A stretch of 64,000 nt of DNA from Candidatus Micrarchaeia archaeon (GCA_041500865.1 JBGQMY010000001.1:1-64000); one strand, 5' to 3'; counted from the stretch's first letter, positions 16,600-55,421 are shown. Notes: generated from the sequence alone by a model not told the origin. Translations and numbers: made by a program.

Positions 16600-17346
16600 T
16601 TATTGGCTTATGCACAGGCCGAATTCCCTCAGGAACGTCACGCGCTCTTCCCCTGTCCATGCCAATCCCCTGCCTATTGAGTTGCGTTCCCATTCCCGAA
16701 TGCCCCCGATGGAGCCGCCGCGGGAAACCAGGAGCGCGAATATTGATATGGTCTCCTTACGCATCACAAGATTGCCCATTGGCGTGTTCGGGGATAACGA
16801 ATGACCCTGGACATTCGGGTCTGCGCCTGCGTCAAGGAGCAGCCTGCATGCCTCATAGTGCCTGCCAAGGATTGCGCCGGAAAGCGGCTCTCCGATTTCC
16901 TGCGTTGAGCCGTCCGGGTATGCCCCTGCGTCAAGCAGGGCCTTGCATATCTCGGTGTTTCCTTTGAAAGCTACGAATTGTAGCGGGACTTTCCTTGTGT
17001 CTGCCATGCCCATGTTTGGGTTTGCTCCGGCAGAAAGGAGCAGGTTGACCATCTTAAGGTTTTTGTTGGGTGCATATATTTTGTTGCGGACTGCGTGGAT
17101 AAGGGGCGTAACGCCGTCATAATCCCTTGAATTGGGATTCGCACGCTTCGCAAGCGCGTTTTTCGCGCCGTCAAGGTCATTTCTTCTCGAAGCCATGAAA
17201 AGGTCTTCAGTAGCCCTTGCGGCAATGCGCTTTAGCTGCTCCTCGTCCGGCTCAGGGTAGAATGTGTCCTTGAAGAACACGGCTATCCTGTCCCTCATCC
17301 GTTTGAACGGACCGGCCCTTTCCTTTGCAACCCTTATTTTCTCCAT
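16600..17346 (-). CDS. Ankyrin-repeat protein
   Basis: GVTPLIHA, LLSAGANPN, LLDAGADPN; tail FLREFGLCISQ. Confidence 0.9.
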   Translation of the reverse strand: MEKIRVAKERAGPFKRMRDRIAVFFKDTFYPEPDEEQLKRIAARATEDLFMASRRNDLDGAKNALAKRANPNSRDYDGVTPLIHAVRNKIYAPNKNLKMVNLLLSAGANPNMGMADTRKVPLQFVAFKGNTEICKALLDAGAYPDGSTQEIGEPLSGAILGRHYEACRLLLDAGADPNVQGHSLSPNTPMGNLVMRKETISIFALLVSRGGSIGGIREWERNSIGRGLAWTGEERVTFLREFGLCISQ

Positions 17347-17370
17347 TGGCTTTATTGTGCGGCAAAGGGA

Positions 17371-17976
17371 TTAAAAATCAGGCTGCGAGGCATTCGTTGA
17401 ACAATGAGACGAACAGCTTTCCGGATTCCTTTCCGACAAGCGCGCGGCCAGGACTTTGGCAAGTAACCGCGCGGTTTGGGCATGTTTGTTGGCTTTGGCA
17501 TAATGCAATGCCGTTTTGCCGTCATCGTCCTTTGCCAATATCAGCTCGCTTGTGTTTCCGCCGGCGTTTGCGTATTCCCTTATGAGCAGGGCGCATATTT
17601 CCGTGTGCCCAAAACATGCAGCGCAATGGAGCATGGCCCACCCCTCTGCAGCATTCGTTTCAGCGAGCAGCTCCTTCATGTGGCTGCCGCCTTTTGCGCA
17701 TTTCTGCAGCATTAGGGCGCAGATGTCTGCGTTTCCATTGGCTACGGCCAAAAACAAAGCCGTGTAGCCCTCGCTGCTTTTTGCGGCCGCATCCGCGCCT
17801 TGGCTGATTAACTGCAATATGTTTTCGCTTCTGTTTTCAACCGCGGCAACTCTAAGCTCGTCATTGAGCCATTTCTGGTCATTAGACGATGCCGGTTTCT
17901 CGCTTGGCATGATGTCGGCTTTGTGCCTGACTGGCCTCTTTGCTGGCAAATTTTTCAAGAGCGGCTTTTCCTGCAT
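17371..17976 (-). CDS. Ankyrin-repeat protein, probable frameshift near 3' end
   Basis: GYTALFLA, GWAMLHCAA, GKTALHYA; family tail LVGKESGKLFVSLFNECLAA* lies in another frame (stop 17378). Confidence 0.8.
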   Translation of the reverse strand: MQEKPLLKNLPAKRPVRHKADIMPSEKPASSNDQKWLNDELRVAAVENRSENILQLISQGADAAAKSSEGYTALFLAVANGNADICALMLQKCAKGGSHMKELLAETNAAEGWAMLHCAACFGHTEICALLIREYANAGGNTSELILAKDDDGKTALHYAKANKHAQTARLLAKVLAARLSERNPESCSSHCSTNASQPDF

Positions 17977-18015
17977 GGCTCGTTTGTGCGGCAAAGGGAA
18001 TAAAAATGGCGCCTT

Positions 18016-19122
18016 TCATCTTCTTCTTTTTGCAAGCTCTTCCGGGGATATCTTTATGCCAGCCTTGCGGTAAGCCATTGAGATATCCTCATAGGTTAGT
18101 TGCAATGTATAGCCATGCTCTTTTTTTAGCTTTTCCAGCTCCATGGCATGCCCTTTCCATGCGTTTTTTGCCTCTCTTTTCATGCCGGCCTTCTCAAAAT
18201 TGACTGCCGCAGCGCCGGAAGAAGGCATCTTGAGGTAAATTTCTGCAATGGCGTCAAATGCCTTAGCTTTCCGGTATTGCACCAAAGCGAAATGTTGGTT
18301 GCCTGATGCCAAAAACAGGTCGCCGGCTCTCCTTTCCATGCCAGGGACTTTCCTGTACATCCTTGCAGCAAACATCAGGTAATTTCTCCTGAATGTGTCC
18401 AACCCTGAAGACGAATAGGCACGGAGCATCTTGAATCCCTCGGCAAAGGAATCCTTATACATCTGCTCATAAATCTTTCCTGCTTTCCTGTATTCGCCCA
18501 TGGATGCAAACATGTTCGCAGCCTGCGCGGTCTTGCCAGAAGCCAGAAGGCTGGCGGCCGCTTCATTGCCTTTTTCCATCAGTTCTGGCGCAACGGCGCG
18601 CATCCTATTGGCAGAGGCACGCAATGCGGGCTTTGCCACAGAACCGCGGACTTTCCTTAGCACCACTCCGAGCCTCTCAGCCTCCCCGATGATGGCTCCG
18701 CGCTTCGTGATTGCCTGCAGCGCCACCGCGCCAACTGCAAAAGCCGGCAACGTCCACCCCGAACCGCCTTGGCGCAGCTCATCGTGCGCCTTTTTTGTGT
18801 CTTCAGCCAAAATAGAAAAGTAATCAATGGAATCGCTGAAACGCTCAAGGGCGCCTGCGAACTTTGGCGAAGACGCATCCCCCAGGCTCAAGATGCGCCT
18901 TAGGGACAGATAGTCTGTCTCAAGCGAAGTGAACGCTTCCCTGAGCGGCGACTTGTCAAGCCTGCCCGTGGCTTTCTCAATTGAATTTGTCGTGTCCAAC
19001 GCCCAGCGCATGGCCTCTGCGGCATTCTTTGTGTAAAAATCCGGCATGGGGGCCTTTTGGGGAATTGGCCCTTTCTCCTTTTCGGAATTTGGTTTCGCCG
19101 CGCGCAAAGCATCCTCAGCCAT
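18016..19122 (-). CDS. Hypothetical helical-repeat (TPR-like) protein with central hydrophobic segment
   Basis: Repeats like AANMF..MGEYRKAG, AGDLF..SG, AAVNFEKAG. Confidence 0.55.
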   Translation of the reverse strand: MAEDALRAAKPNSEKEKGPIPQKAPMPDFYTKNAAEAMRWALDTTNSIEKATGRLDKSPLREAFTSLETDYLSLRRILSLGDASSPKFAGALERFSDSIDYFSILAEDTKKAHDELRQGGSGWTLPAFAVGAVALQAITKRGAIIGEAERLGVVLRKVRGSVAKPALRASANRMRAVAPELMEKGNEAAASLLASGKTAQAANMFASMGEYRKAGKIYEQMYKDSFAEGFKMLRAYSSSGLDTFRRNYLMFAARMYRKVPGMERRAGDLFLASGNQHFALVQYRKAKAFDAIAEIYLKMPSSGAAAVNFEKAGMKREAKNAWKGHAMELEKLKKEHGYTLQLTYEDISMAYRKAGIKISPEELAKRRR

Positions 19123-19179
19123 AAGGATATGTCATTGGGCATGTATTTAAACGCTGATGCTGGCAGCCAAAAATGGGCA

Positions 19180-19647
19180 TTAGAGGAACATGCTGAAAAC
19201 AAGCTCGTCCTCGCCCTTGTAATAATGGTCCTTCAGCGTGGCCTCATGCCTGAACCCGAGCGTTCCGTAAAACGACTGGGCGTTCTTGTTTGACGCGTGC
19301 GTAAGCAGGTAAACCTTCCGGAGATTGTGGCCGTTCAATCCATAGAATTTCTTGGCGTCCGCAAGCAGCGCGGAAAACAGGGCCGTCGCAATCCCCTTTG
19401 AACGGGATTCGGGAAGCACTGCAATCCTGTCCATCTCCGCAAGCCCGTGCTTCGTCAGGCCATGCATGGTCCAGCTCGCAAGGCCTACGATTTTGCCGTT
19501 GTCGTCAGCAACGACATAGCGGTGGCCGTGGGACAGTTCATTGAGGAAGGCGGCCTTCGCCTCTTCAAACGTTTCCATGTTGTAGCCTCGCAACAGCACT
19601 TCAGCTACGCCGCCAGCGTCGCCAACTGTCCCTATCCTAAGCATCAT
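19180..19647 (-). CDS. GNAT acetyltransferase
   Basis: IAVLPESRSKGIA, N..AQSFY..LGF; start overlaps glmS stop. Confidence 0.85.
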   Translation of the reverse strand: MMLRIGTVGDAGGVAEVLLRGYNMETFEEAKAAFLNELSHGHRYVVADDNGKIVGLASWTMHGLTKHGLAEMDRIAVLPESRSKGIATALFSALLADAKKFYGLNGHNLRKVYLLTHASNKNAQSFYGTLGFRHEATLKDHYYKGEDELVFSMFL

Positions 19648-21467: not shown

Positions 21468-21601
21468 CAAGGAAGGATTGGGACTGATGGGATTTTATTT
21501 GTTCCTGCAATCCAGCTTTTGCAAATGCGGGCCAAAATGCCATCATGGGACGGCAAGAACGTTTAAAAACCTTAGCCGGCAAGTAAAGCAACTGCAATTT
21601 A

Positions 21602-21681: not shown

Positions 21682-22143
21682 CTATTTATTTATACACTCC
21701 TGGAACGCCGCTATGAATGCCTTTGACTGCTCCGGATTGGCAATTATCATCATATGGGCTTCAGCAATAGCCCATTTTTCTGGGTCTGGATTTTTGCTGC
21801 CAAAGAAAGCGATTTGCAACGGCGTCCTGTTGGTCATATTGCCCCTGGCATTAATGTCTGCGCCGTGTTCAATCAGAAGCGCATAGGTTTCGGAATTTCC
21901 GCACCATGCTGCATAGTGCAGCGCAGTCCAGCCCCCCGCATCTGTTGCGTTTATCTCGGCCCCAAGCTCCAGGAGACGCATTACTTCCTTATTGTTGCCA
22001 ACATTGGCATAATCCAGAAGCTCACTATTGAGCCGCGCCTGGCGCTCTGCCGTAAGCCTCGGCCTTTCGCTCGGCAGGCCCTCCCTCGGAAGCCTGGGCT
22101 TTGGACGATTTGGGGCCCTGCCGGCTTCAAGACGCTCTGTCAT
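21682..22143 (-). CDS. Ankyrin-repeat protein
   Basis: GWTALHYAA, LIEHGADIN; tail FIAAFQECINK. Confidence 0.9.
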   Translation of the reverse strand: MTERLEAGRAPNRPKPRLPREGLPSERPRLTAERQARLNSELLDYANVGNNKEVMRLLELGAEINATDAGGWTALHYAAWCGNSETYALLIEHGADINARGNMTNRTPLQIAFFGSKNPDPEKWAIAEAHMMIIANPEQSKAFIAAFQECINK

Positions 22144-22196
22144 GGATATTCAGTTAATAATAATGTTTAAAAATGTTTTGTATCATAATAGGCAAC

Positions 22197-25290: not shown

Positions 25291-26382
25291 ATGGTCTATG
25301 TGAAATCGGTTGCGCCAACAAATATAGCGGTCGTGAAATACTGGGGGAAGAACCCCTTGTGGGAAACGTACATGATACCCACCAAGAGCTCAGTCTCTTT
25401 TACTGTTGAGGGATTCCAGAGCGAAACCGAGCTGGACGCGCAGGCAGGCAGCGGCAAGGTGGAGTTCACGCTCAACGACAAAGCCATAACGCCGGACATG
25501 AAGGAATACGAATACGTGAAGGACATGTTCGGAAAGGCGTTTGAGCTGTTTCCAAACACCAAAAAGTACGATTATGCCGTAAAGAGCAGGAACAACTTCC
25601 CGACTGCGGCAGGATACGCCTCCTCGGCAAGCGGATTCGCGGCGCTTGCAAGGGCGCTCCAGGGCGCAATGAAGAGGCTTGAACCCGAGTTTTACGGAAA
25701 ATACATGGCAAATGACAGGCTGCTTTCGGTTTTTGCGAGGCTGGGCAGCGGCTCCGCGACAAGGAGCGTGCCGAAGAAGGGTGGGTTCGTGCTTTGGAGG
25801 CGCGGCATGGGCCCAAAGGCCAAGAGTCCCGAAGGCATGGACGCAGCAGCAAAGGGGAAGGCAATATTCTCAAGCTGTTCCAAAAGCGTGCTTGCCCCGG
25901 AACACTGGCCGGAGCTCAGGATGATATACACAAAGGTGGAGGAGAAGGAGAAGAAGATAAAGAGCAGGGCAGGCATGAAAACATCTCTGCAGACGTGCCC
26001 GATATACTGGGACTGGGTGGATTACGAGGAGAAAAAGGACCTGCCGGCAGTCATTGACGCTGTCAGGGCAAAGGACTTCCAGGCATTCGCGAGGCTGGCA
26101 ATGCAATGCAGCAACGGCCTGCATGCGATTATGGGATATACGTATCCAAGGATATCATACCTTACTGAGGGAAGCCTTGCCATAATAGACGCTGTCCATG
26201 CAATGAACGAGACGGAAACAAAGGCCGCGTACACGTTTGATGCAGGGCCGAACGCGATAGTCTTCACGCTGGACAAGCATGAAAGCGAAGTGAAGTCCGC
26301 GCTTTCCGAGATAGTCGGAAGCGACAAGGTTGCAGTGACAAGGATGGGCAAGGGCTCACGGATAGAGAAGGTGGAAGGATGA
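25291..26382 (+). CDS. mvaD: Diphosphomevalonate decarboxylase
   Basis: APTNIAVVKYWGK, FPTAAGYASSASG, RLGSGSA, YTFDAGPN. Confidence 0.92.
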   Translation: MVYVKSVAPTNIAVVKYWGKNPLWETYMIPTKSSVSFTVEGFQSETELDAQAGSGKVEFTLNDKAITPDMKEYEYVKDMFGKAFELFPNTKKYDYAVKSRNNFPTAAGYASSASGFAALARALQGAMKRLEPEFYGKYMANDRLLSVFARLGSGSATRSVPKKGGFVLWRRGMGPKAKSPEGMDAAAKGKAIFSSCSKSVLAPEHWPELRMIYTKVEEKEKKIKSRAGMKTSLQTCPIYWDWVDYEEKKDLPAVIDAVRAKDFQAFARLAMQCSNGLHAIMGYTYPRISYLTEGSLAIIDAVHAMNETETKAAYTFDAGPNAIVFTLDKHESEVKSALSEIVGSDKVAVTRMGKGSRIEKVEG

Positions 26383-27476
26383 ATTCAGTAAACGTTCCTG
26401 GCAAGATACTGTTTTACGGCGGGTTCAGCGTGCTGGAAAGGGGCAACATTGCGCTAAGCGTCGCGGTCTGCGGGGAGGACGGCAGGGGCGTTGTGGCAGG
26501 TGCGGAAATAGGGGCAAGGAGGATTGTCTCGCCCCAGTTCGGGCTTGACATCAGCCCTTCGCTTGCCGACGGCCAGATAGTCTCTTATGCATACGTGTTT
26601 GCCGAGACCTACCTCAGGTCATGCGGCAAGTGGACAGGCGACATAAGGCTGAAGGTGGAAAACAGCCCTGTGTTCGGGGCCAAGGACAGGAAGACCGGGC
26701 TCGGCAGCTCGGCTGCCGCAACCGTGGCCGTGGTCAAGGCGCTGTTTGAGGCAAACGGCCTGGACTCCAGCGCGCATGTCGAGACTGTGCACAAGCTTTC
26801 GCAGCTGGCATATGCCGCATTCTCAAAGAAGGTCGGCTCCGGGTTCGACATAGCGACAAGCGCATTCGGCAGAAGCATCATATACAATAGGTATGACCCG
26901 GCCGAGATTTCGCTTCCTTCTTCGCAGGAGGGAGCGGAAATCGGAAGGGCGATAGCCGCTTCTGTCAACAGGCCATGGGGGTGGGTGAAGGCAATCCCGT
27001 TTGCGTTTCCCAATGACTACAAGATTGTGTTCTTCAACATAATAAGGGGCAGCACGTCCACGATAAGCAGCGTCAAGGCTGCCATGGAATGGAAAAAGAG
27101 CAATGGCGACGAATACAAAAGGCTGATTGCGAAGCAAAGGGACGCCGAGGCAAAGGCCATTGAAGCCCTTTCTGCGCATAAGAGCGCCGACGTCAGAAAA
27201 TACACCCATGTTGCGCGCGAGGCCCACCAGGAGCTGCAGAAAAGGGTCAAGGGGGCCGTGCCGGATTTTGACCCAATAGAGCCGGAACAGCTGACTGCCA
27301 TAATACAGGATGCGGAGAAGATGGACGGAATTGTAGCCGGACGGTGCCCTGGCGCAGGCGGATATGACGGCGTGGCCTTCATAGCCGAAAGCAGATTTAG
27401 GGAAACTGGGGAGATAGCCGGGCTTGGGAAAAGGCATGGCCTGAAGCTCGAGCACATACCTTTGAGGGTGCTTTGA
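26379..27476 (+). CDS. Phosphomevalonate kinase (ERG8/MvaK2-like GHMP kinase)
   Basis: PGKILFYGGF, KTGLGSSAA, KVGSGFDIA, PGAGGYD. Confidence 0.85.
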   Translation: MNSVNVPGKILFYGGFSVLERGNIALSVAVCGEDGRGVVAGAEIGARRIVSPQFGLDISPSLADGQIVSYAYVFAETYLRSCGKWTGDIRLKVENSPVFGAKDRKTGLGSSAAATVAVVKALFEANGLDSSAHVETVHKLSQLAYAAFSKKVGSGFDIATSAFGRSIIYNRYDPAEISLPSSQEGAEIGRAIAASVNRPWGWVKAIPFAFPNDYKIVFFNIIRGSTSTISSVKAAMEWKKSNGDEYKRLIAKQRDAEAKAIEALSAHKSADVRKYTHVAREAHQELQKRVKGAVPDFDPIEPEQLTAIIQDAEKMDGIVAGRCPGAGGYDGVAFIAESRFRETGEIAGLGKRHGLKLEHIPLRVL

Positions 27477-28355
27477 ATGCCTGGAACAGGATACGGCAAG
27501 GTCATTTTGTTTGGAGAGCATTTCGTCGTGCATAACGAGCCTGCCATAGTCGCAGGACTGAAGAACATGAGGACTGTCATGGAGATAGAGGAAGGGCCGT
27601 GGAACCCTGAACTGGACGAGCAGTCAAAGGCAGGATATTCGGCTGTTGCAAAGGCCTGTGGCATTGAGGGAAAGACATTCACGCTGAATATCAAGGAGAC
27701 TGTGCCAATAAAGCAGAACCTTGGAAGTTCGGCTGCATTTTTTGTTGCGTTCGCCAACGCGCTGAACAAAAAATACAGGCGCGGCATGAAAAAGGATGCG
27801 ATAAACAGGGCGGCATATGAAGGCGAAAAATCCATCCACGGCAAGCCCAGCGGCATAGACAATTCCGCGTCAACATACTGCAAGCCTTTGGTGTTCAGGA
27901 AAAACGCGGACGGCTCGTTCAGCATAAAGAAGCTTAGGATAGGGGCGCCGCTGCACCTTGTGATATCAAACACGGGGCCGAAAAAGGGGACAGGGGAGCT
28001 TGTTGCGCATTTCAGTTCGCTAAAAGAGAAAAATGCCATTTCAAAGGACATGCTCTCGCTTTACAAAAAGATATTCACAAACGCTAAGACCGCGATAAAG
28101 GAAGGCAATGCAGATGGGCTCGGATTCCTGATGAACGTAAACCACGGGCTGCTTGCATCATTTGGCCTTTCCACACCCAAGATAGAGGAGGCGCGGTTCC
28201 TGATGCGGGAAAACGGGGCTTTGGGCTCAAAGATAACCGGGGCAGGCGGCGGGGGCAACATAATAGGCCTTTTCAGGGGCGAGGAAGAGGCGAACAGGGC
28301 GAAGGCAGAAATGGAGAAGGAAGGATTCAAGTCCTTTTACGCAAGGATTGAGTGA
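27477..28355 (+). CDS. mvk: Mevalonate kinase
   Basis: GKVILFGEHFVV, LGSSAA, HGKPSGID, KITGAGGGG. Confidence 0.93.
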   Translation: MPGTGYGKVILFGEHFVVHNEPAIVAGLKNMRTVMEIEEGPWNPELDEQSKAGYSAVAKACGIEGKTFTLNIKETVPIKQNLGSSAAFFVAFANALNKKYRRGMKKDAINRAAYEGEKSIHGKPSGIDNSASTYCKPLVFRKNADGSFSIKKLRIGAPLHLVISNTGPKKGTGELVAHFSSLKEKNAISKDMLSLYKKIFTNAKTAIKEGNADGLGFLMNVNHGLLASFGLSTPKIEEARFLMRENGALGSKITGAGGGGNIIGLFRGEEEANRAKAEMEKEGFKSFYARIE

Positions 28356-31653: not shown

Positions 31654-31696
31654 ATGGCAAACATTCACGATAACAGGGGATACCGTGGCGGCAGGC
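31654..31696 (+). repeat. 43-bp direct repeat copy 1 (duplicate of the nop5 5' end)
   Basis: ATGGCAAACATTCACGATAACAGGGGATACCGTGGCGGCAGGC identical to 35754-35796. Confidence 0.95.
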
Positions 31697-32035
31697 GACA
31701 GCGGCAGGATTGCGAGGCTCCTGAGGCTCGGCGCCGACGTTTGGGCAAGGGACAATCTAGGCTTTACCGCACTCATGTGCGCCTCATTTGATGGGCACAT
31801 CAGCATCTGCGCGCTGCTGCTTGAAAGGCTCGCGCAGGCAGGCGGGGACACAAGAAAGTATATCGAGACTGTGATAGAGGAAGGCATCCATAAGGGATGG
31901 GCTGCATTCACATATGCCGAATATAATCACAGGAAGCCGGCCAAGTTTCTAAAGGCGGCTCCGTTGCTTGCCGAGTCGATGGGAAACGCGGATTTCGCCA
32001 AGTTCCTTTCAGGCTTCAGGGAATGCATGGGCTGA
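31685..32035 (+). pseudogene. 5'-truncated ankyrin-repeat gene joined out of frame to the nop5 duplicate
   Basis: Begins mid-repeat (AAGDSGRIARLLRLGAD), GFTALMCA; tail FLSGFRECMG; the nop5-copy frame stops at 31791. Confidence 0.65.
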
Positions 32036-32133
32036 TAATAGTCACAGAATCAAGATATGTTATAAAAATGTCAAAGAAGACGATATTTCTCAAATTTATA
32101 TAGGTTACTTTTATAAATTATAATAAGTATTAA

Positions 32134-32493
32134 ATGGTCGGTGATTACATGGAAGATATAGAAGAAACTCCAGAGTCAATTACAGTTTCAGATTCTTATT
32201 CTTTTAAACTTTATCACGGAAGCAAAAAGAAATATTTACTAAAGGGAACAGGTAATGACAACGTTCAAAAAAGAATTTCAAGGAAACCATATGGTGCGCA
32301 TGGTGCAATCCACCTAGTTATGGTAAAAGGAAAGTATGTTCATATCGATTGCAAAAACAAGGGATGCGGTAACAACTGGACAATGGAAAAAAATGGGAAG
32401 AATTATACTAACTTTTTTAGTGTGGAAAAAGAAGCATCTGGTATTGATTTGATTAAGTGCAAGAAATGTGGTGCTGAACACGAAAGTGGTTGA
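32134..32493 (+). CDS. AT-rich small Zn-ribbon-like protein
   Basis: CKNKGC ... CKKCG cysteine pairs. Confidence 0.6.
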   Translation: MVGDYMEDIEETPESITVSDSYSFKLYHGSKKKYLLKGTGNDNVQKRISRKPYGAHGAIHLVMVKGKYVHIDCKNKGCGNNWTMEKNGKNYTNFFSVEKEASGIDLIKCKKCGAEHESG

Positions 32494-32527
32494 TCCGAGA
32501 TAGAGTAATAATGCAGCGACAAAAGAT

Positions 32528-32971
32528 TCAATCTTTTATTTTATAAACTTCAAAACCTTCTGCCAAAGCAACTTCTTTTAGATACTTATCCGCTGATGCA
32601 AATATTAGTTCATTGTGATTTTTCTTAGCTTCCAAGGCGCAAGCCAATTGCATTGCATCGAAAGATTCTAATTTTGCGTATTTTTCCATAAGCTGAACGC
32701 TTTTTTCCAATATTTCCTTAGTTATCTTTACTGTATTAAAGGATCTATATTCAACTAAAAAAGCATTTATATCGTTATGCTTCTTCGTCAGATTTGTTAT
32801 TATTTCGTATGGCAAAAGGGATGAAATTATTACATTTTTAATGCCGCTGGATGCCTTTCCGTCAGATGATTCATTTAATATGGTCCAATATAAATTATTC
32901 ATTTCGTTCGTACACTGCTCTTGCCTGAATATACCAAACAATGCGCTGGTGTCACAGAAATAGTACTTCAT
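32528..32971 (-). CDS. PIN-domain (VapC-like) ribonuclease
   Basis: YFCDTSAL, E, FDAMQLACA, SAD..L..VA..EG. Confidence 0.85.
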   Translation of the reverse strand: MKYYFCDTSALFGIFRQEQCTNEMNNLYWTILNESSDGKASSGIKNVIISSLLPYEIITNLTKKHNDINAFLVEYRSFNTVKITKEILEKSVQLMEKYAKLESFDAMQLACALEAKKNHNELIFASADKYLKEVALAEGFEVYKIKD

Positions 32972-35667
32972 TCTAGGCTTTCCTCTATTATTTTCCTTTC
33001 TTCATCCGTAATGTCATACAATTTATAGACTTCTTCATCAATTTCATTATCTAATTTTTGGATTTCTTTTTCAAGACGAATTTTTTCGTCGGTTTGCTTG
33101 TCTGATAATAATACAAATTTTTTTGCAAGACTAAGTCTATTATCAATTAATTTAATGATAATTTGCCTATTTGAATCAATAACTACGGGTAGTATATCTA
33201 GAAATTCGCTCCGATATCTCATATATCCTCCGCCCATATGCATTCCACCAAAAAGTACATTATATACAAAAGAAAGTAATTTACTATTTAATATACCCAA
33301 TATGTATTTCAGTTCAATATCTTTAATTAAGGTGGCAAAGTAGACACCTCCTTGAGGAATTCTCTTGTCAAAATCAATAGTTGCACTAATCGTTAAAGCA
33401 TCTTCCGCAATAATTAATTTATCTTTAAAAGAATTCAGGAGCCGTTCAGACTTTTCTCCTGCAACAGTCATCAAATGATGTTTGCTAATATATGTGCCCT
33501 CCCTGATAGGGCCCCATTTTTCAAATTGATACTGTTTAACAATACCAAAATCATTCTTCTGTTTTTCTTCATAATCCACAGGAATTCTGAATCCTTCTGA
33601 TATCTGTAAAATATCTGACAGTTTCCCATTTTGACTCTCAAGTTTTAAAACTAAATTTATTGCTTTCTGGTTTGAGTTTATAGGAAATACTTTATAAGGA
33701 ACAATAGAAAGATCATTGTTCTTTATATTAGATATTTCAAATTTGTTATTCAAAAAATATGCCAAATTTCTGATAAATCCTAACTTTAAATTTTTTAATT
33801 TTTCGCCTTTCCGTATGAGTATAATTACAGGGTAGTTGCTAGCGTCTTTAAAAATATCCAAATGACTAACACTTAATATTGAACAATCTTCAGAAGAATT
33901 CAGTAATAATTCCCGCAATTTTTTTGCTGAGGCAGCAGCACAAAATTTATTTGGAAGTATAAATCCGAGATACCCTCCTTTCTTTATTAATTTAAGAGAT
34001 TGCTCAATAAAAAGATAATAAAGGTCGTATTTTCCTTCGGAAACAATAAACTCATCTTTCCAAAATTCCTTATCTTCTTTATCTAAACTATCAACTCTGA
34101 CATACGGCGGATTACCAATCACCACGTCAAACCCATACCCTTCTTTCAGATTGCCGTTTTCGTCGTATTGTATGGTGTCCGGGAACTGCTCGTCCCAATT
34201 GAGCGGCTTCTTGTCATCCCACTTTTCGCCGAAGTATTTCTTCAGCTCCTCTTCCTTCCCGGAAATCAGCGAATTGCCGTTCTTTATGTTCCCGGAAAGC
34301 AGGGGGAACATTCCTCTTTTCCGCGAAGTTTCAACCGCCTTAAGCAACAGGTTAAGCTCGGATATCTCAATGGCCTTTTTGTCAAGGTCTACGCCGTGTA
34401 TGTTCTTGGTCAGAATCATGTGGGCATTGCGCGATATGTCCTCCGTCAGCATCCCGCTGTCCCCGCCGTACGCCTTCCTGTACGCATCCGCGAACATCCC
34501 ATAGGCGCGTATCAGGAACGAGCCCGAGCCGCATGCCGGGTCAAGCACCTTTATCTTCTGCAGTTTCTCAGGTGTGTCTGCGCCCTTCAAGACCTCGCCA
34601 AGCGTGTTTTTGACAATATAATCGACAATGTAACGGGGCGTGTAATAAATGCCCATTTCCTTCCTGTTGGCCTCTTTTGCCACCAAACGGCCGCTTTCAC
34701 GCAATATCGTGGCAAGGTACTGCTCATATATCCCGCCCAGGACATCAACGTCTATGGCTGAAAAATCCCATTTATAAAGGCCGTCCTCTCCGTCTATGAG
34801 CTTCTCGACCACGGCATCGTCAATGTACATTTCCCCGGCAAAGTGGGGCGAAAACAGGTCACTGTCGTACCATTCTATGAAATCGTCAAAAACCTCCCTT
34901 AGGTGGCGCATGAGCTTCTTTTTCCCGTTTTCCCTCCATATGCGCACGGATTCCCGAAGCCGCTCATTCTCTATCCCAAGGCCCTCGCAGGTCCTTATGA
35001 ACACGAAGCGGTTAAGCAGCTTCTGGACGCCCTCATCCACCTGCTCCTTGGAAAGCTTGTTGAGCCTGCTGTGCTCCATGATGTTGTTGGAAAGCGCCTT
35101 CCTCCATGCCATCAGGTCGTTAAGGAGCGCCTTGCCCACCGGCTCAGGCTTTATCTTCTTTCCCACCTTTTCAGCATAAGTGTCTATCTCATTGGAGGCA
35201 AACGCCTCCTTTCCAAGGAGCAGCAGTTCGCCAAGCCGTGAGACATAGTCATCCAGCGTGAATTTAAGGAACCGGCTGTCCTTGTTGTATTTTGCTTCGG
35301 CATTGTAGATAATCAGTTCCCTGAAGTTTGTCAGGACTGCCCATGGAACTGACTTGTAATAGGCATAATCAACCGACTGCTCCGCTTCCTTTTCCTCAAG
35401 CTCGACATTCACTGCCTTCGCCTCAAGGAAGAACTTAAAGACCCCGGAAACCATGAAGGCATAGTCTGCCCTTGTGCGCAGGACATTGGACTCCATGGAG
35501 ACTTCCCCAAGATCCTTCATATTCCAGCCAAGAGCCTCAAGAAGGGGCTCTATAAAAACCCTTTTTGTGTCGGGCTCCCCAAGGCCCTTTAGCATCCCCC
35601 TTGCCTCATATCCCTTATATTTTGAGACAAGCTCGGATATCTTGGCCTTTGCCGCTTCCGTATCCAT
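32968..35667 (-). CDS. Type IIG-like fused restriction-modification enzyme (nuclease + N6-adenine MTase + TRD)
   Basis: E.DT...IEPLLEALGW, RADY..FLEAK, TNFRE; GIYYTP, DPACGSGSFL, NPPY; TaqI-C-like tail. Confidence 0.9.
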   Translation of the reverse strand: MDTEAAKAKISELVSKYKGYEARGMLKGLGEPDTKRVFIEPLLEALGWNMKDLGEVSMESNVLRTRADYAFMVSGVFKFFLEAKAVNVELEEKEAEQSVDYAYYKSVPWAVLTNFRELIIYNAEAKYNKDSRFLKFTLDDYVSRLGELLLLGKEAFASNEIDTYAEKVGKKIKPEPVGKALLNDLMAWRKALSNNIMEHSRLNKLSKEQVDEGVQKLLNRFVFIRTCEGLGIENERLRESVRIWRENGKKKLMRHLREVFDDFIEWYDSDLFSPHFAGEMYIDDAVVEKLIDGEDGLYKWDFSAIDVDVLGGIYEQYLATILRESGRLVAKEANRKEMGIYYTPRYIVDYIVKNTLGEVLKGADTPEKLQKIKVLDPACGSGSFLIRAYGMFADAYRKAYGGDSGMLTEDISRNAHMILTKNIHGVDLDKKAIEISELNLLLKAVETSRKRGMFPLLSGNIKNGNSLISGKEEELKKYFGEKWDDKKPLNWDEQFPDTIQYDENGNLKEGYGFDVVIGNPPYVRVDSLDKEDKEFWKDEFIVSEGKYDLYYLFIEQSLKLIKKGGYLGFILPNKFCAAASAKKLRELLLNSSEDCSILSVSHLDIFKDASNYPVIILIRKGEKLKNLKLGFIRNLAYFLNNKFEISNIKNNDLSIVPYKVFPINSNQKAINLVLKLESQNGKLSDILQISEGFRIPVDYEEKQKNDFGIVKQYQFEKWGPIREGTYISKHHLMTVAGEKSERLLNSFKDKLIIAEDALTISATIDFDKRIPQGGVYFATLIKDIELKYILGILNSKLLSFVYNVLFGGMHMGGGYMRYRSEFLDILPVVIDSNRQIIIKLIDNRLSLAKKFVLLSDKQTDEKIRLEKEIQKLDNEIDEEVYKLYDITDEERKIIEESLE

Positions 35668-49854: not shown

Positions 49855-50649
49855 TTACCTAAGATATGACCCTATGGGAGACGAGACACAGCCCAGAAAC
49901 TCTTCAACGAACGGCCTTATTGTGTTTTTATTGAGAACATTGCGCACCTCCTTTTTTTCAAGGAATGTGTTCAGGAAGTTTATCTTGGCTGAGCTGTATT
50001 CCCATCCTTGTTTGTGCGCTCTGCGGAATGCATCAAAAATAGATGTTCCAAGGCTTTCTTGGGAGCAGTCTGCGCCGTGGGATACGAGCATCGACACCAT
50101 GGGCATCGACACATCAATTCTGCTGTTGCTTATTGCCCAAAGCAACGGACGGTCTCCAAGGTTGGGGTTTGCGCCGGCCTCAAGAAGGGCGCTGGCGTTG
50201 TCCAGGCAGCCATTTTGTACGGCTAATGCAAGGGCCGTTTTTCCGGCACCGCACATTGCGTCCTTGTTTGCGCCGCATCCGATAAGGCACTTGACCACAA
50301 GCGTGTTTACTGACATGGAAGCGCTCATCAGCGGCGTGATGCCATCTTCGATGCTCATATTTACATCCGCCCCGTGCCTAACCAGGAGCGCACATATGTC
50401 AGGAAGCGGCTTTTGAACAGCCCTTGCAAGCGGCGTTGCCCCATATTCATCCCTTGCGTTGGGGTCTGTGCCAGCCTCAAGGCACGCCCTTGCGCCTTCA
50501 TAATCGTCATTCTTTATTGTTCTGAACAGGCGGCTTGACTGTTCGGTTTTGAGGCTGTCAAGAATAAGCTCCCTTCCCCTGATTATGTCCTTCATTGGAA
50601 CCGGGAGATTGGGGGTTTGCACTATGACCCTAAACGACTTTTCTGCCAT
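49855..50649 (-). CDS. Ankyrin-repeat protein
   Basis: Start MAEKSF; GATPLARA, GITPLMSA, GKTALALA; tail FVEEFLGCVSS. Confidence 0.88.
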   Translation of the reverse strand: MAEKSFRVIVQTPNLPVPMKDIIRGRELILDSLKTEQSSRLFRTIKNDDYEGARACLEAGTDPNARDEYGATPLARAVQKPLPDICALLVRHGADVNMSIEDGITPLMSASMSVNTLVVKCLIGCGANKDAMCGAGKTALALAVQNGCLDNASALLEAGANPNLGDRPLLWAISNSRIDVSMPMVSMLVSHGADCSQESLGTSIFDAFRRAHKQGWEYSSAKINFLNTFLEKKEVRNVLNKNTIRPFVEEFLGCVSSPIGSYLR

Positions 50650-50709
50650 TTTAACCGTTTGTTTTCGTGGTTGAAAGAGTTTATAATACCTTTCATGGAA
50701 AACCAATGC

Positions 50710-51645
50710 ATGAAAGAGAGGGAAAAGCCTGCCAAAATCCAGAAAAAGGTCCGCGGACGGGTAATCCGGCCAATGTACATGCTTGAATCCAAAAGGGGGC
50801 GGGAACTGTATATCCGGCTCCATGACGCGCTTGTTGGGGTGCCGGGACATCCGGATTGGGAGAAGGCAAGGCAAGCCATCAACGCAGGGGCGGATGTTGA
50901 ATGCGTCCTGAATGAGCTGTTCAAGACTCCGCTTATATGCGCTGCCATTTACGGCAATGCGGAGACATGCGCCCTTTTACTGAACAAAGGGGCAGAGATT
51001 GATGCCGTTGACAGTGACGGAAGCACTGCATTGACATCGGCTGCCATCATGGGAGGGCTTGAGGTTTGCAGGCTTCTGATAAGGAAGGGCGCGAACGTGA
51101 ATGCAGAGAACGGACATAGCACTGCCCCGCTTGCGTATGCGGCATCAGGCGGCTGGACGGAGATTTGCAGATTGCTTGTCTCAAAGGGAGCGGATATCAA
51201 CAATGCCAATATTCTGGGATATACCGCACTCATGTCTGCGGCAAAGCAGGGCAAGGCAGAGACGTGCAGGGCTTTGCTGGACATGGGCGCCGACATGGAT
51301 ATGGCAGACAATAGTAACAATACAGCGCCTGAGCATGCCGCAAGGGAAGGAAACCCGGAAACGTGCAAGGTATTTTTGGAAAGAGGATTAGATATCAATG
51401 CAAAACGCTATGAGTCGAGCCTGCTCATGTGCGCCGCAGACAGCGGAAACATGAAAACCTGCGTGTTCCTGCTTGAGAACGGCGCAGATGTGTCCTCAAC
51501 AGATGGTCCTGGCCACACGGCGGCGTACATGGCACAGGCCAATAACCACAATGCAGTATCGGGATTCCTCAAGCTTATGGAATCGCTTGGCGATGATTCG
51601 ATAATGCCGTTCCTTTCGGAGTTCAGGGCATGCGTAAGCCAGTAA
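50710..51645 (+). CDS. Ankyrin-repeat protein (about 8 repeats)
   Basis: KTPLICAA, GSTALTSA, GYTALMSA; tail FLSEFRACVSQ; start chosen from TATA spacing. Confidence 0.9.
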   Translation: MKEREKPAKIQKKVRGRVIRPMYMLESKRGRELYIRLHDALVGVPGHPDWEKARQAINAGADVECVLNELFKTPLICAAIYGNAETCALLLNKGAEIDAVDSDGSTALTSAAIMGGLEVCRLLIRKGANVNAENGHSTAPLAYAASGGWTEICRLLVSKGADINNANILGYTALMSAAKQGKAETCRALLDMGADMDMADNSNNTAPEHAAREGNPETCKVFLERGLDINAKRYESSLLMCAADSGNMKTCVFLLENGADVSSTDGPGHTAAYMAQANNHNAVSGFLKLMESLGDDSIMPFLSEFRACVSQ

Positions 51646-51675
51646 TATTTAAACCTTTATCATCAAACCCAAACC

Positions 51676-52269
51676 ATGATTGCGGACAGGCTCAGGGACT
51701 GGCTTAATGTGAAGCTGTTTTTTCCCATAGGCAAAATGCTTTATTTCCTTGATCCTAATCTTATGACTGCGCTGGCATATCCGCTTTGCGCGATTGCCGG
51801 ATATTTCGTTTATGCAAAAGACTATCCGCTTGCGCTTGTTTTTGTCGTCCTTTCGTCCATTGTCGACAACCTTGACGGAGCGATAGCGAAGGCGAACAAC
51901 AAAAAGACGTCGTTCGGCTCTTATTTTGACGCGATGACGGACAGGATACAGGAATTCTTCATACTTCTGGGTTTTGCGCTTTCCGGCTATGCGGTTGAGG
52001 CGTTCGTTGCGATTGCGGCAAGTTTCATGGTGAGCTACGCGAAGGCCCGCGCGGAAATGATTAAGCCGCTCGGCAACATGGACTGGCCGTCAATCGGCGA
52101 AAGGGCGGAGAGGCTGATAATAGTGATGCTGGCGATGTTGGCCGCGATATTCTACCCGGTCGTTTATGGATACAATACAATAAGCGCAGGGCTGTGGATA
52201 CTGGCGATTGTCGCGTTCATAGGGACGGTGCAGAGGTTCTTCTTCGCGAAGCAACTGCTTTCAAAATGA
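51676..52269 (+). CDS. CDP-alcohol phosphatidyltransferase
   Basis: DNLDGAIAK...TSFGSYFDAMTDR, SYAKARAE, ERAERL. Confidence 0.92.
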   Translation: MIADRLRDWLNVKLFFPIGKMLYFLDPNLMTALAYPLCAIAGYFVYAKDYPLALVFVVLSSIVDNLDGAIAKANNKKTSFGSYFDAMTDRIQEFFILLGFALSGYAVEAFVAIAASFMVSYAKARAEMIKPLGNMDWPSIGERAERLIIVMLAMLAAIFYPVVYGYNTISAGLWILAIVAFIGTVQRFFFAKQLLSK

Positions 52270-52950
52270 GACGCATTCCAGGAAATTCATTCCGAACGCC
52301 TTTGCGGCGTATTCTGGGAGTATGTTGTGCAGCTTAACGAAACGTATCATATAATGTCTTGCGTCCTTTCCGATTGCCAGATCCCACGCGCTATAACTGT
52401 CAACATCCCTCTTTATGTTCGGGTCGGCGCCTGCAGCAAGCAGAACCATTGCCGCGTTAATCATAGTCATGCGATCTAAAGAACTTCCGGCAACGGCTTC
52501 GTGGAGCGGGGTGCTGCCGTATCTGTCAGTCGCATTAACATTTGCTCCTTTGGTTATCAAGATGCTGCATATATCTGCGCATCCAGACCCTGCGGCAAGG
52601 TGCAGTGCTGTACTGCCACGGCTAGTCTTTGCGGTAATGAACCGCTTTACGCCTCCATTTGATTTTGCGCATTGTTCTATAAGCAGTGCGCAGGTTTGGT
52701 AATATCTCTTATTTGCAGCAAGATGCAGGGCAGTCCAGCCTGTATCGTCCTTTGCTGTGATGTTTGCGCCTTTCCTTATGAGCTTCACTATTTCCTCGTT
52801 GTTGCCGTTCCACGCGGCGCTGCGAAGCGCTTTATTGAGCCGCCTCTGCTCTTTTGTGGATAATATGATCATTTCGCTCGGCAGTATGTCCATTGCCAGC
52901 CTTGGGCTTGAAGGCAGAATCTGTTTGATTTGGCTTTTTTCCTGCGCCAT
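52261..52950 (-). CDS. Ankyrin-repeat protein
   Basis: GWTALHLAA, GSTALHLAA, GSTPLHEA; tail FGMNFLECVSF. Confidence 0.92.
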   Translation of the reverse strand: MAQEKSQIKQILPSSPRLAMDILPSEMIILSTKEQRRLNKALRSAAWNGNNEEIVKLIRKGANITAKDDTGWTALHLAANKRYYQTCALLIEQCAKSNGGVKRFITAKTSRGSTALHLAAGSGCADICSILITKGANVNATDRYGSTPLHEAVAGSSLDRMTMINAAMVLLAAGADPNIKRDVDSYSAWDLAIGKDARHYMIRFVKLHNILPEYAAKAFGMNFLECVSF

Positions 52951-53517
52951 CTAGCCACCGCCCGATATGCATCCCTTGAATCCGGAAAGGAATTCCTTGA
53001 GGGATTTATTTCCAATCAGTTGCTGCAAAAACTCCATATTTTCAAGAAATAGGGCTGTGGCGGTGCTTTTCTGCTCTAGGGCAATCATGCGCGCAGTCCT
53101 TTTGAGATTGTCCCTTGCGCCGACATTTGCGCCTTTTTCAATCAGCAGTTTGCAGATTTTCGTATGGCCCTTGTATGCGGCAACCATGAGCGCGGTCCAG
53201 TTGTAGCTGGTCTTTGCCTCGATATCCGCGCCATTTTCAATCAGGAGGGTGCAGATATCAAACTGCTCCTGTATTGCGGCCTTCATGAGCGCAGTAATCT
53301 CCTTAAGCGCATCCCTTGCGTTCGGGTTTGCGCCTTTGCCCAACAGAATCTTGACATCTTTTATCCGACCATACCTGACTTTCTGGAAAAGATCATCATT
53401 CAGCTGCTCTTGCGTCATTTCGCCAAACATAATCCCATCTATTGCATACTTATGCTTGACAAGCCTTGGCTTCTCTTGTACGGGCATATCCTTCGGGAGA
53501 TTCTTTAGCTGCGCCAT
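52951..53517 (-). CDS. Ankyrin-repeat protein
   Basis: TALMKAA, WTALMVAA; tail FLSGFKGCISGGG. Confidence 0.92.
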   Translation of the reverse strand: MAQLKNLPKDMPVQEKPRLVKHKYAIDGIMFGEMTQEQLNDDLFQKVRYGRIKDVKILLGKGANPNARDALKEITALMKAAIQEQFDICTLLIENGADIEAKTSYNWTALMVAAYKGHTKICKLLIEKGANVGARDNLKRTARMIALEQKSTATALFLENMEFLQQLIGNKSLKEFLSGFKGCISGGG

Positions 53518-54066
53518 TCAGGCACCGCCCCATATGCAATCCAGGAAGCTCTTTCCGAACGGGATTGTGTTACTGCCAATCAGCTCTTTTGTGTCCTCAA
53601 AATGGACGAGCGCAAGCCTCATCTTTCCCCTTCCGTTGGCAAAGTCCCATGCGTTGTTCGCCTCGCGGCTGCAAGTTTCGTAGATGTCGGGGTCTGCCCC
53701 ATGGAAAACCAGCAGCAACGAGGCATCATAGTGGTTGTTGATTATGGCAGCCATAAGCGCATTGTAGCCATTGCTGTCCTGCTGGTTGGCGTTTGCCCCG
53801 TTTTTGAGAAGAATCCTGCATATGTCCGTACAGCCCTTGGAGGCGGCGATGGAAAGCATTGGCTGACGCTGAAACGGCTTGCCATTGGACTTTGTATTAG
53901 GGTTTGCGCCTTCCTTGATGCATCTGGAGACAAGGGAAACGTCCCCGGTCTTTACGGCATATTCAAGCGAATAATCCGCCAGGTCCTGCTTATCAGAATC
54001 AGTTGTTTTGAGCTTGGCAAGGTTTGGCTTCTTTTGCTGGTCTTTTTCCTGCTTTTGGAGCTGCAT
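53518..54066 (-). CDS. Ankyrin-repeat protein
   Basis: GANPN, GYNALMAA, GADPD; tail FGKSFLDCIWGGA. Confidence 0.9.
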   Translation of the reverse strand: MQLQKQEKDQQKKPNLAKLKTTDSDKQDLADYSLEYAVKTGDVSLVSRCIKEGANPNTKSNGKPFQRQPMLSIAASKGCTDICRILLKNGANANQQDSNGYNALMAAIINNHYDASLLLVFHGADPDIYETCSREANNAWDFANGRGKMRLALVHFEDTKELIGSNTIPFGKSFLDCIWGGA

Positions 54067-54726
54067 TCAGGCACCACCCACGCATTCGCGGAAGGATTTC
54101 GTGAATGAAACCATTCCCTCTTGCCCTAGGGACCTGCGCATGCGGTTAAAGAAAATCAGCAAACCTGCGACTTCGGGATGTTCGGCCCATACTGCCCTGC
54201 GCCAAGGCGCCCAGCCTTTTTTGTCCTTTGCTGTCATGTCGGCGCCGTTTTCAATCAGCAATGCGCATACGTCAATGTGCCCGGCCCAGGCTGCGCAATG
54301 GAGCGGCGTGTTGCCATCTTCGTCCTTTGCATTGACATCCGCTCCTTTGCTTATCAAAATGGCGCAGGCGCGGGCGTTTCCGCCGTTTGCGGCATGGTGC
54401 AGGGCCGCACTGCCGTGATTGTCCTTTAGCTCCATGTCAGCGCCGTTTTCAATAAGCGCTGAACAGGCTTCCGGGGTGCCGTGCTTTATCGCATAATGCA
54501 GCGGCGTCTGGCCGTCCTTGTCCGTAGCATTGACATTTGCTCCGTCATGAATGCTTTGCTGGATTCGTTCAATATCTCCATCAAGTGCGCCATTGAACAG
54601 CGCATTGGTCCTAAGAAGCTGGCCGTAGTCCTGCGGCTTTGGGCTTTTTTCCAGCAATGTTTCATCAGGCAGCCTGGGCTTCTGGGGCTGGGAACCGCTT
54701 TTTCCTGCTTTCCGGCTTTCCTGCAT
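54067..54726 (-). CDS. Ankyrin-repeat protein
   Basis: GQTPLHYA, GNTPLHCAA; tail FTKSFRECVGGA. Confidence 0.92.
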   Translation of the reverse strand: MQESRKAGKSGSQPQKPRLPDETLLEKSPKPQDYGQLLRTNALFNGALDGDIERIQQSIHDGANVNATDKDGQTPLHYAIKHGTPEACSALIENGADMELKDNHGSAALHHAANGGNARACAILISKGADVNAKDEDGNTPLHCAAWAGHIDVCALLIENGADMTAKDKKGWAPWRRAVWAEHPEVAGLLIFFNRMRRSLGQEGMVSFTKSFRECVGGA

Positions 54727-54827
54727 GCTTCCGCTTATTGCAACAGACCTGTTAAAAACCTATCCGGCACAGCCAAGTCGGCTGTGCAAAAAGCTTAAAA
54801 AACCTTACAGATATATAGTAATTTTTA

Positions 54828-55421
54828 ATGGCCAATGAAACTTTCGCAAGAGGGGCGGAAAGGCCCGGAAACAGAACGCTTTCTTATGGCAAGGAACCTC
54901 TTTTTGACAGCCAAACGAAGCGCTGGCAGGATAGCGCGCTCCTAGTAGCAGTGCGCAACAGGAGCGTGGAAAGCGCGCTAATGGCAATAGACAAAGGCGC
55001 AAGCATAGACACAAAGGACATAAGCGGCAGCACTGCGCTGATGATAGCGGCTGAAAGCGGTGATGCGGCTATGTGCAGGGCTCTTCTGTGCAAAGGGGCC
55101 GACATTGAGGCAAGGATGATAAACACCGATATCGGGCTCGGGACGTGCGAAACCGCGCTGATAACTTCGGCAAAGCACGGCAAAAAAGACGTTTGCATCC
55201 TTTTGCTGGAAAAAGGCGCAGACCCAAACGCAAAAGACAGGTACAAGACAACTGCGCTCATGTATGCTGCGCAGTTGGGGCATCCGGACGTTTGCACGGC
55301 CCTGCTGGAGCATGGGGCGGACCCGCGCCTAAAGGACGTGAACTTAATGACTGCGCTCCAGCTTTCAAGGAATGGCGCAAGCGAGGCCATACAGGAATAC
55401 CTTGCCCATTTTAAAGTGTAA
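54828..55421 (+). CDS. Ankyrin-repeat protein (lacks the Cys tail)
   Basis: GSTALMIAA, ETALITSA, TTALMYAA. Confidence 0.9.
   Translation: MANETFARGAERPGNRTLSYGKEPLFDSQTKRWQDSALLVAVRNRSVESALMAIDKGASIDTKDISGSTALMIAAESGDAAMCRALLCKGADIEARMINTDIGLGTCETALITSAKHGKKDVCILLLEKGADPNAKDRYKTTALMYAAQLGHPDVCTALLEHGADPRLKDVNLMTALQLSRNGASEAIQEYLAHFKV

Follow-up and report, generated by a model that had tools for sequence, protein, structure and literature searches.

An expanded ankyrin family with a constant C-terminal F-x3-F-x2-C tail in a Candidatus Micrarchaeia archaeon

The first 64,000 nucleotides (nt) of contig C1 of a Candidatus Micrarchaeia archaeon (GCA_041500865.1, JBGQMY010000001.1:1-64000; here called the window) hold eleven genes for ankyrin repeat proteins, ten of which end in the same short sequence, F-x3-F-x2-C. 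The initial annotation took this tail for an undescribed sorting signal or docking module on otherwise divergent binding proteins. Is the tail a module in its own right or simply the last helix of the ankyrin solenoid, and what could a constant end on so many different binders be good for? These questions were addressed with the source genome (G000; 1,043,478 bases on 36 contigs, rated 92% complete), its relatives and structure predictions. The small-subunit rRNA of G000 scored 1410 bits with the archaeal model, as compared with 1076 bits with the bacterial one.

Results

About 100 ankyrin proteins share one C-terminal tail

Pfam ankyrin families matched all eleven window genes above the curated cut-offs, which established them as real ankyrin genes. 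A six-frame scan of the window returned 16 occurrences of F-x3-F-x2-C. Ten were located 10-18 residues before a stop codon, at the end of ankyrin frames, and the remaining six fell into short spurious open reading frames (ORFs) or were internal. Translation and motif scan together reproduced each of the ten tail strings reported initially, nine being in frame and one out of frame.

Genome-wide, the motif was present within the last 25 residues of 105 of the 8038 stop-bounded ORFs of at least 60 residues, as compared with a chance expectation of 15.5 ± 3.9 ORFs (maximum 22) derived from 50 within-ORF shuffles. A hidden Markov model (HMM) was built from the ~38 C-terminal residues and, after three rounds of searching the six-frame ORFs of the genome at E ≤ 0.01, retrieved 85 ORFs; every match was situated at most 20 residues from the stop codon, and none was internal. 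A repeat HMM trained on the same genome recognized 122 ankyrin ORFs, with 154 Ank_2 matches in the genome. Ankyrin repeats were carried by 82 of the 85 tail-bearing ORFs, and the other three were two fragments and a degenerate ORF of 147 residues. Thus, the tail does not occur on non-ankyrin proteins. Inspection by eye added 15 ankyrin ORFs with degenerate yet recognizable tails, three window genes among them. Altogether, about 100 of the 122 ankyrin ORFs are tail-bearing; the set of 100 occupies 62,496 nt, i.e. 6.0% of the genome, and 49 of its members lie within 500 nt of another member. The HMM found no tail in 40 ankyrin ORFs, of which about 25 are left when the 15 with degenerate tails are taken out. 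Among these, three are cut off at the end of a contig, several others are damaged members of the family, and several finish with ordinary caps. Two tail-less ankyrin proteins (C3:30715-31296, minus strand, and C17:16494-17342, plus strand) begin with a lipoprotein-like signal peptide (...LLLFGCLGQTN) and, because of it, are probably exported proteins of a different kind.

Family members have a common layout that consists of an N-cap helix, 1-11 ankyrin repeats (mostly three), an elongated last helix, and the short tail helix. The N-terminal ~35 residues, basic with a net charge of +4.5 on average, are predicted to be disordered, with a predicted local distance difference test (pLDDT) score of 54-67. 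No clear signal peptide or transmembrane segment was detected in the 89 full-length proteins, only two of which contained a weakly hydrophobic 19-residue window. In most of the genes, a TTTTTAA box stands ~30 nt before the ATG, and from there a conserved stretch (consensus CCTTTGCCGCACAATAAAGGC) extends to the start codon. The arrangement resembles a leaderless archaeal promoter. A TATA-like box directly follows the stop codon in 18 of the 100 genes and lies within 12 nt of it in five more. Helix 2 of the internal repeats contains a conserved cysteine ((T/I/V)-C-x-L-L), the bodies of the 89 proteins comprising 302 cysteines, and an alanine takes its place in the last, degenerate repeat.

Three tail positions are conserved at the protein level

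The tail was evaluated in the 89 full-length members and in a full-length alignment of 79 sequences. Numbered from the cysteine (position 0), the tail logo showed Phe at -7 in 87, Phe at -3 in 85, and Cys in all 89 proteins; this cysteine was the sole invariant column of the full-length alignment. Preferences were less strict at -6 (Leu/Met/Ile, 65/89), -4 (Ser, 43/89), -1 (Glu/Asp, 64/89), and +1 (Ile/Val, 69/89), and small residues follow +1. The (L/I/M)G that had been described as often preceding the tail was recovered as a hydrophobic residue (Leu/Met/Ile/Val/Phe) at -15 in 73 and a glycine at -14 in 46 of the 89 proteins. The helix before the tail has conserved hydrophobic positions at -26, -25, -22, -19, -16, and -15. 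As read from the logo, residues -7, -6, -3, 0, and +1 would form a single hydrophobic stripe on a helical wheel.

Synonymous codons are mixed at these residues: TTC/TTT are used 68 and 19 times for Phe(-7) and 66 and 19 times for Phe(-3), TGC/TGT 82 and 7 times for the cysteine, and GAA/GAG 24 and 26 times for Glu(-1). Codon variation at near-invariant residues means that selection acts on the protein. Furthermore, only four independent paralog pairs share at least 50% identity, with a synonymous divergence (dS) of 0.6-0.8. Thus, the family is old, and the residues have been kept by protein-level selection. A large ankyrin family exists in this genome, its tail is strictly C-terminal, and three positions of the tail are under purifying selection at the protein level.

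The distance between the cysteine and the C terminus is variable. In 98 tails, the cysteine is followed by three residues in 58 cases, two in 21, four in 12, and five in 4; lengths of 9, 10, and 15 residues occurred once each. One broken family member has lost the cysteine. Five tails end in GG(A/G/V), and all of them stand directly before the ATG of a coupled downstream gene (window positions 52950/52951, 53517/53518, and 54066/54067; C2:54802 and C15:6451 elsewhere in the genome). The extra glycine codons appear to double as a G-rich ribosome-binding stretch for the coupled gene. Part of the spread in length therefore arises from the start signals of the next gene, which constrain the ending.

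The tail lies beyond the canonical ankyrin cap

AlphaFold models were obtained for two family members. In the first (gene 54067-54726, 219 residues, 79-sequence alignment; mean pLDDT 91.4), four repeats are followed by a single helix, residues 184-217, which prolongs the outer helix of the last repeat to the end of the protein (pLDDT 92, then 85). Its best Foldseek matches were designed ankyrin repeat proteins (DARPins), including shared-helix DARPin fusions. The second, a consensus-type member of 182 residues (pLDDT 90.6), has a helix at 152-168, a four-residue loop, and a helix at 173-181, with pLDDT values in the tail of no more than 74 and then 67. A total of 997 solved ankyrin or DARPin chains aligned only to residues 33-166 of this model, the matched range ending at 160-166. 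Because all of them stop by residue 166, the capping helix corresponds to the pre-tail segment, and F-x3-F-x2-C is an appendage beyond it. This segment (...ETAAFLKSME.L) aligns with the C-cap helix of DARPins (Z 22-24, root mean square deviation about 1 Å), whereas the last ~16 residues are outside the matched range. Likewise, it is the segment before the tail, not the tail, that has the features of a canonical ankyrin C-cap in the predicted model, and neither the Pfam ankyrin profiles nor the genome-trained ankyrin HMM reached the last ~24 residues.

The tail is dispensable for the ankyrin fold, as about 25 ankyrin ORFs of the same genome end without it, several of them in ordinary caps. These and the 997 chains identify the tail as a distinct, selected module. 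It is not a plain capping helix that is found equally in other lineages, having turned up in a single genus (see below).

When the 54067-54726 protein (residues 30-219, with its alignment) was modeled as a homodimer, the score was 0.01, the mark being 0.42; this speaks neither for nor against dimerization. In the ESM Atlas, the best look-alike of the 33 C-terminal residues scored 0.89, below the meaningful level. When the 85 tails were scanned against Pfam at E ≤ 1, no family matched the tail, and only stray single matches appeared. Nor did searches of the literature on ankyrins in DPANN archaea and Micrarchaeota and on prenylation in archaea bring up a description of it. Within these sources, the tail is undescribed, as had been proposed.

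The tail is restricted to one genus

The tail HMM matched all three genomes of the genus (G000, 101 matches; G001, 27; G002, 41) and none of 38 other relatives (16 of the same family and 22 of the order), one of which has 71 Ank_2 matches. Across an even sample of 400 additional genomes of the phylum, tail matches were confined to a congener; two single marginal matches (E 1.8e-4) with internal stops end before the cysteine and were not convincing. A pattern scan of a species-representative collection with a nine-sequence subfamily alignment as query yielded nine tail loci, all in two congeners (Candidatus Micrarchaeota / Micrarchaeia archaeon), and a scan of viral contigs turned up nothing related to the tail. 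A library of 1.84 billion proteins gave 1419 matches, mostly generic ankyrin sequences over the first 18 profile positions. Among the best 150 of these 1419, 67 covered the whole tail, always at the C terminus of proteins of 41-464 residues, and 16 came from G000. The other 51, which were picked with the G000 profile and hence are not an unbiased sample, contain Phe(-7) in 51, Phe(-3) in 49, and Glu/Asp(-1) in 48 cases, and two or three residues follow the cysteine in 49. Among the genomes searched, the tail is restricted to one genus.

Ankyrin repeats as such are not restricted in this way. Of 41 related genomes, 25 had Ank_2 matches, and separate expansions were seen in G008 (71 matches), G020 (33), G030 (22), and G018 (17). 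The view that ankyrin expansions are uncommon in archaea thus fails locally, as independent expansions exist in at least three other genera. Undinarchaeota are reported to be without ankyrin genes.

A sister genus carries a module of similar design

Genome G008, of the same family and a different genus, encodes many ankyrin proteins with a constant ~55-residue C-terminal module of their own (loci L089-L101 and L109-L114) and a constant charged N terminus (MEVKDKEKK...). The module alignment has an invariant Leu, Cys, and Lys, and a near-invariant (≥ 90%) Leu four residues before the invariant one. The resulting L-x3-L-x2-C-x-K has the same spacing as F-x3-F-x2-C, and a basic-acidic pair often precedes the cysteine. 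Like the tail, the module is found on ankyrin proteins only and is genus-restricted; its profile gave 19 matches in G008 and none in 18 other genomes of the family. The two differ in that the G008 module is longer, with a further helix after the cysteine, and the protein goes on for about a dozen residues or more. Profile-profile comparison revealed no similarity between tail and module (probability 0.4%), and the profiles do not cross-hit. A common origin is therefore possible but unproven. Whatever the origin, the design of a variable ankyrin domain with a lineage-specific, constant, cysteine-bearing end recurs in the sequences of the two genera.

Ankyrin genes of the window

Some of the gene boundaries first given were revised. 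The gene at 16600-17346 (minus strand, 248 residues) was recognized by Pfam, translation, and motif; its degenerate tail reads ...FLREFGLCISQ, with tail codons and stop at 16600-16635. Alignment of the upstream regions of the 89 family genes placed its promoter/leader box at 17347-17380 (minus), where TTTTTAA (17371-17377) is followed by CCCTTTGCCGCACAATAAAGCC and then the ATG. This box opens directly after the stop codon of the out-of-frame tail of the neighboring family member, 17371-17976 (minus), whose ankyrin body was recognized by Pfam and for which three-frame translation agreed with the frameshift noted initially. The tail, ...GKESGKLFVSLFNECLAA at 17378-17413, is in another frame than the ankyrin body, the frameshift being ~25 codons before the end. 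The start of this gene is the ATG at 17976 (MQEKPLL...), behind a promoter box. A further gene at 21682-22143 (minus, 153 residues) ends in FIAAFQECINK (21682-21717) and has a conserved upstream box region at 22144-22175 with a TATA-like box at 22167-22173.

Pfam and translation identified a 5'-truncated family remnant at 31685-32035 (plus), which comprises 116 residues from a GTG and ends in FLSGFRECMG (32003-32035). It lacks the N-terminal part and the promoter box. The remnant adjoins an island of low guanine-plus-cytosine (GC) content at 32001-35667 (GC 0.314 at 32001-34000), which contains a PIN-domain gene and an 899-residue Eco57I/MmeI-type restriction-modification fusion.

The gene at 49855-50649 (minus) has the tail FVEEFLGCVSS plus seven residues, i.e. 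ten after the cysteine (49855-49911). Its ORF is open to 50874, and an ATG at 50649 lies behind a TATA-like box; translation probably starts there. The gene first placed at 50710 is a plus-strand ORF that opens at 50617 and, from the ATG at 50695, runs to 51645 (316 residues; tail FLSEFRACVSQ, 51610-51645). Its TATA-like box (50680-50686) is inside the 45-nt spacer that it shares with the divergent gene 49855-50649.

Four tandem tail-bearing genes occupy 52261-54726 (minus) in the order 54067-54726, 53518-54066, 52951-53517, and 52261-52950, with 0 nt from each stop codon to the next ATG; they are translationally coupled. Their tails are FTKSFRECVGGA, FGKSFLDCIWGGA, FLSGFKGCISGGG, and FGMNFLECVSF, respectively, and the promoter box of the operon is at 54727-54760 (minus; TTTTTAA at 54752-54758). 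All seven sequencing runs listed for the 5.6-kb ankyrin cluster of the window are DNA-type sediment metagenomes, with no RNA run among them. In a related sediment population (run X4, depth 2.9), one contig goes from 52247 to 52969 through 25 different letters and so skips exactly the ankyrin gene 52261-52950, which hints weakly that cassettes are gained or lost. Contigs from the remaining samples span the cluster only as short fragments, and the stretches of the cluster that they leave uncovered are uninformative. Finally, the gene at 54828-55421 (plus; 197 residues, ending ...AHFKV) has neither a tail, as reported from the start, nor the promoter box typical of the family. A gap of 3 nt separates it from a downstream gene for a 488-residue protein with a class I methyltransferase domain (55425-56888, plus), and this short gap suggests that 54828-56888 may be an operon.

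Other features of the window

Six consecutive minus-strand ORFs at 6770-14363 (347-459 residues) have no Pfam match and hydrophobic N termini; these N termini and a weak mutual similarity (21-52% over parts) suggest tandemly arranged relatives that are membrane or secreted proteins. The plus strand at 25291-28352 contains three genes of the mevalonate-pathway type, two for GHMP kinases and one diphosphomevalonate-decarboxylase-like, which is notable for a 1-Mb DPANN genome. At 56940-59729 (plus), a gene for the RNA ligase RtcB is split by an intein with a LAGLIDADG domain, and an ORF of 1385 residues without a Pfam match follows at 59739-63893 (minus).

Discussion

What, then, might the tail do? 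We assign a probability of roughly 0.45 to the reading that it is a constant docking helix on variable binders, by which the paralogs are coupled to one partner. The hydrophobic stripe would dock into a groove of this common partner, the ankyrin groove of each paralog would bind a different target, and about 100 binders would thereby be connected to a single machine or site. Conceivable partners range from a receptor or a translocase to a membrane site or an enzyme that modifies the invariant cysteine. The ankyrin proteins themselves are candidate host-interaction proteins.

Several observations weigh against docking. The statement that divergent repeats share the same tail holds for three near-invariant positions and not for the tail as a whole: mean pairwise identity in 1500 pairs was 0.40 for the tail (-10 to +1) and 0.41 for the ankyrin body. 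Ratios of nonsynonymous to synonymous divergence (dN/dS) were alike across all regions (0.29-0.46), the four available pairs being too few to separate them. All structural statements are AlphaFold predictions from two models, which agree in placing the tail beyond the canonical cap and disagree on its conformation, a straight helix in one and a helix-loop-helix in the other. The latter could be an intramolecular hairpin and would give the conserved residues a structural role. Moreover, no gene in the genome was consistently linked to the family, and no candidate for the partner emerged.

The main rival is built on the same observations. Here, the elongated last helix, the turn, and the tail helix form a hairpin that shields the terminal repeat and binds nothing else. 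The helix-loop-helix of the second model is consistent with this, the hydrophobic positions -26 to -15 of the pre-tail helix listed above could pair with the two phenylalanines and the cysteine, the tail is on average no better conserved than the body, and dN/dS is alike in all regions. On the other hand, DARPins and about 25 ankyrin ORFs of the genome do without such an extension, and a cysteine in 89, and phenylalanines in 87 and 85, of 89 proteins are stricter than hydrophobic packing usually requires. The confidence of the second model also falls in the tail, and the first model gives a straight protruding helix. We regard a purely structural extension of the cap as unlikely, although it comes closer to the docking helix than any other alternative.

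A narrower form of docking would make the tail an address label that hands about 100 ankyrin binders to one machine, either for transfer to the host or for lipidation of the cysteine at the contact membrane. In this broad form the proposal seems rather doubtful, and its two specific versions, lipidation and export, are both improbable and equally so.

In the first version, the archaeon or its host would attach a prenyl group or another lipid to the invariant cysteine in the manner of a CaaX box, which would anchor the ankyrin binders to a membrane. The effector AnkB of Legionella pneumophila reportedly combines ankyrin repeats with a CaaX box that is farnesylated by the host. Similarities to AnkB and other CaaX-box effectors include the ankyrin repeats, the near-terminal cysteine, and the endings CISQ, CVSQ, CVAA, and CIAA, which resemble C-a-a-X. 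In 58 of 98 tails, the cysteine is exactly the fourth residue counted from the C terminus, the endings being of the type C-[I/V/L/T]-[A/S/G]-[A/G/S/Q], and mevalonate-pathway genes are found in the window (25291-28352). In addition, each of the three genomes in the genus encodes a homolog of the ICMT-family membrane methyltransferases, which was found in none of the remaining 16 genomes of the family. In G000 it is located at C6:42144-42410 (plus; locus L115) and matches PF04140 with 44.4 bits against a cut-off of 24; its neighbors are unrelated to the ankyrin family.

Against lipidation, the other 40 of the 98 tails do not have three residues after the cysteine, so that the strict CaaX rule does not apply, and the length is partly dictated by the start signals of the next gene. 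The cysteine resides in a predicted helix with the conserved aromatic residues of F-x3-F upstream, unlike the flexible linker before a CaaX box, and in the G008 variant it is well inside the module. The ICMT family also occurs in 8 of 22 tail-less genomes of other families, and its pattern within the family amounts to a single phylogenetic event. No match to PF00432 (prenyltransferase beta subunit) or PF02517 (Rce1-like protease) was obtained in this 92%-complete genome, a search that did not include Ste24 (PF01435) and the alpha subunit (PF01239). Finally, the DNA stems from sediment metagenome runs, with no sign of a eukaryotic host. CaaX lipidation may serve as a lead only.

In the second version, the tail would be an uncleaved C-terminal signal to a translocon or intercellular bridge that delivers the proteins to the interior or the surface of the host cell. 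C-terminal signals are used by bacterial effectors of the type I and type IV systems, among them ankyrin effectors. The absence of an N-terminal signal peptide or transmembrane segment is consistent with this possibility, as is the small genome of this DPANN archaeon, since host dependence is expected of such organisms. The family resembles the expanded binder sets of symbionts, which turn over fast; the X4 contig that skips the ankyrin gene (52248-52968) may reflect such turnover. However, no secretion machinery is linked to the genes in the window, and the known C-terminal secretion signals are compositional and do not consist of three invariant residues.

The last alternative, in which tail codons, stop codon, and next promoter form a recombination junction under gene conversion and the peptide is not selected, could draw on the strongly conserved promoter/leader, the TATA-like boxes close behind stop codons, the clustering of 49 of the 100 members, and the contig that skips a gene, but it is very improbable and, judged from the sequences, largely excluded by the varying synonymous codons at invariant residues, the free variation of the residues in between, the predominance of paralogs less than 50% identical (dS 0.6-0.8), and tails that are equally conserved in genes without a family member downstream.

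How does the tail compare with known C-terminal modules? Ankyrin proteins with a constant C-terminal adaptor are known as the Ank-PRANC proteins of poxviruses, Wolbachia, and Orientia, whose adaptor is F-box-like, and as the animal ASB proteins, which combine ankyrin repeats with a SOCS box. As in these systems, a variable ankyrin binder ends in a helical module that is short and constant, the family is both large and specific to its lineage, and the module is missing from other ankyrin proteins of the same genome. The core of the tail differs in comprising only ~12 residues instead of 40-60. PRANC (PF09372), F-box (PF00646), and SOCS box profiles did not match the eleven window proteins at E ≤ 0.01, where only ankyrin-type families appeared (Ank, Ank_2-5, Ank_KRIT1, and ANK_LRRK2), or the 85 tails at E ≤ 1. 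The architecture of a variable binder plus a constant module was seen again in G008; membership in the F-box or PRANC families was not found. Nor does the BC-box of SOCS boxes fit; its consensus is L-x3-C-x3-[AILV] with a Cul box after it, whereas the tail has the spacing hydrophobic-x2-C and ends 2-5 residues after the cysteine. Cullin-type ubiquitin ligases are not known from the expected archaeal setting.

Short C-terminal amphipathic helices are also known from MinD-type membrane targeting and from the docking of ESCRT-III proteins through MIM1-type motifs. The tail resembles them in its hydrophobic residues at i, i+4, and i+7. It differs in not being markedly cationic, with an acidic residue at -1 in 64 of 89 proteins, and in the invariance of the two phenylalanines and the cysteine, whereas membrane helices tolerate swaps among hydrophobic residues.

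Four other assignments were considered and rejected. By eye on the logo, a PIP box would require adjacent aromatic residues and the HbYX proteasome-docking motif a penultimate tyrosine; an ssrA-like C-terminal degron was dropped, as the ...AA endings do no more than suggest it. The register speaks against a degenerate half ankyrin repeat, and the ankyrin HMMs leave the last ~24 residues uncovered.

Viruses, bacteria, and animals provide precedents for an expanded ankyrin family with a constant C-terminal module; what is new here is the motif, the lineage that carries it, and the scale. Little is known about the ways in which DPANN archaea affect their hosts, and neither a set of effectors nor a targeting signal has been defined in these archaea. 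The family described here has the build of a binder library, in which a constant promoter and a constant N terminus, variable ankyrin repeats, and a constant cysteine-bearing tail are combined, and which takes up 6% of a 1-Mb genome. The sister genus repeats this design with a different tail. If the tail is indeed an address label, it would be the first effector-sorting or C-terminal lipidation signal for an archaeal symbiont, and the sister genus would have evolved a label of its own.

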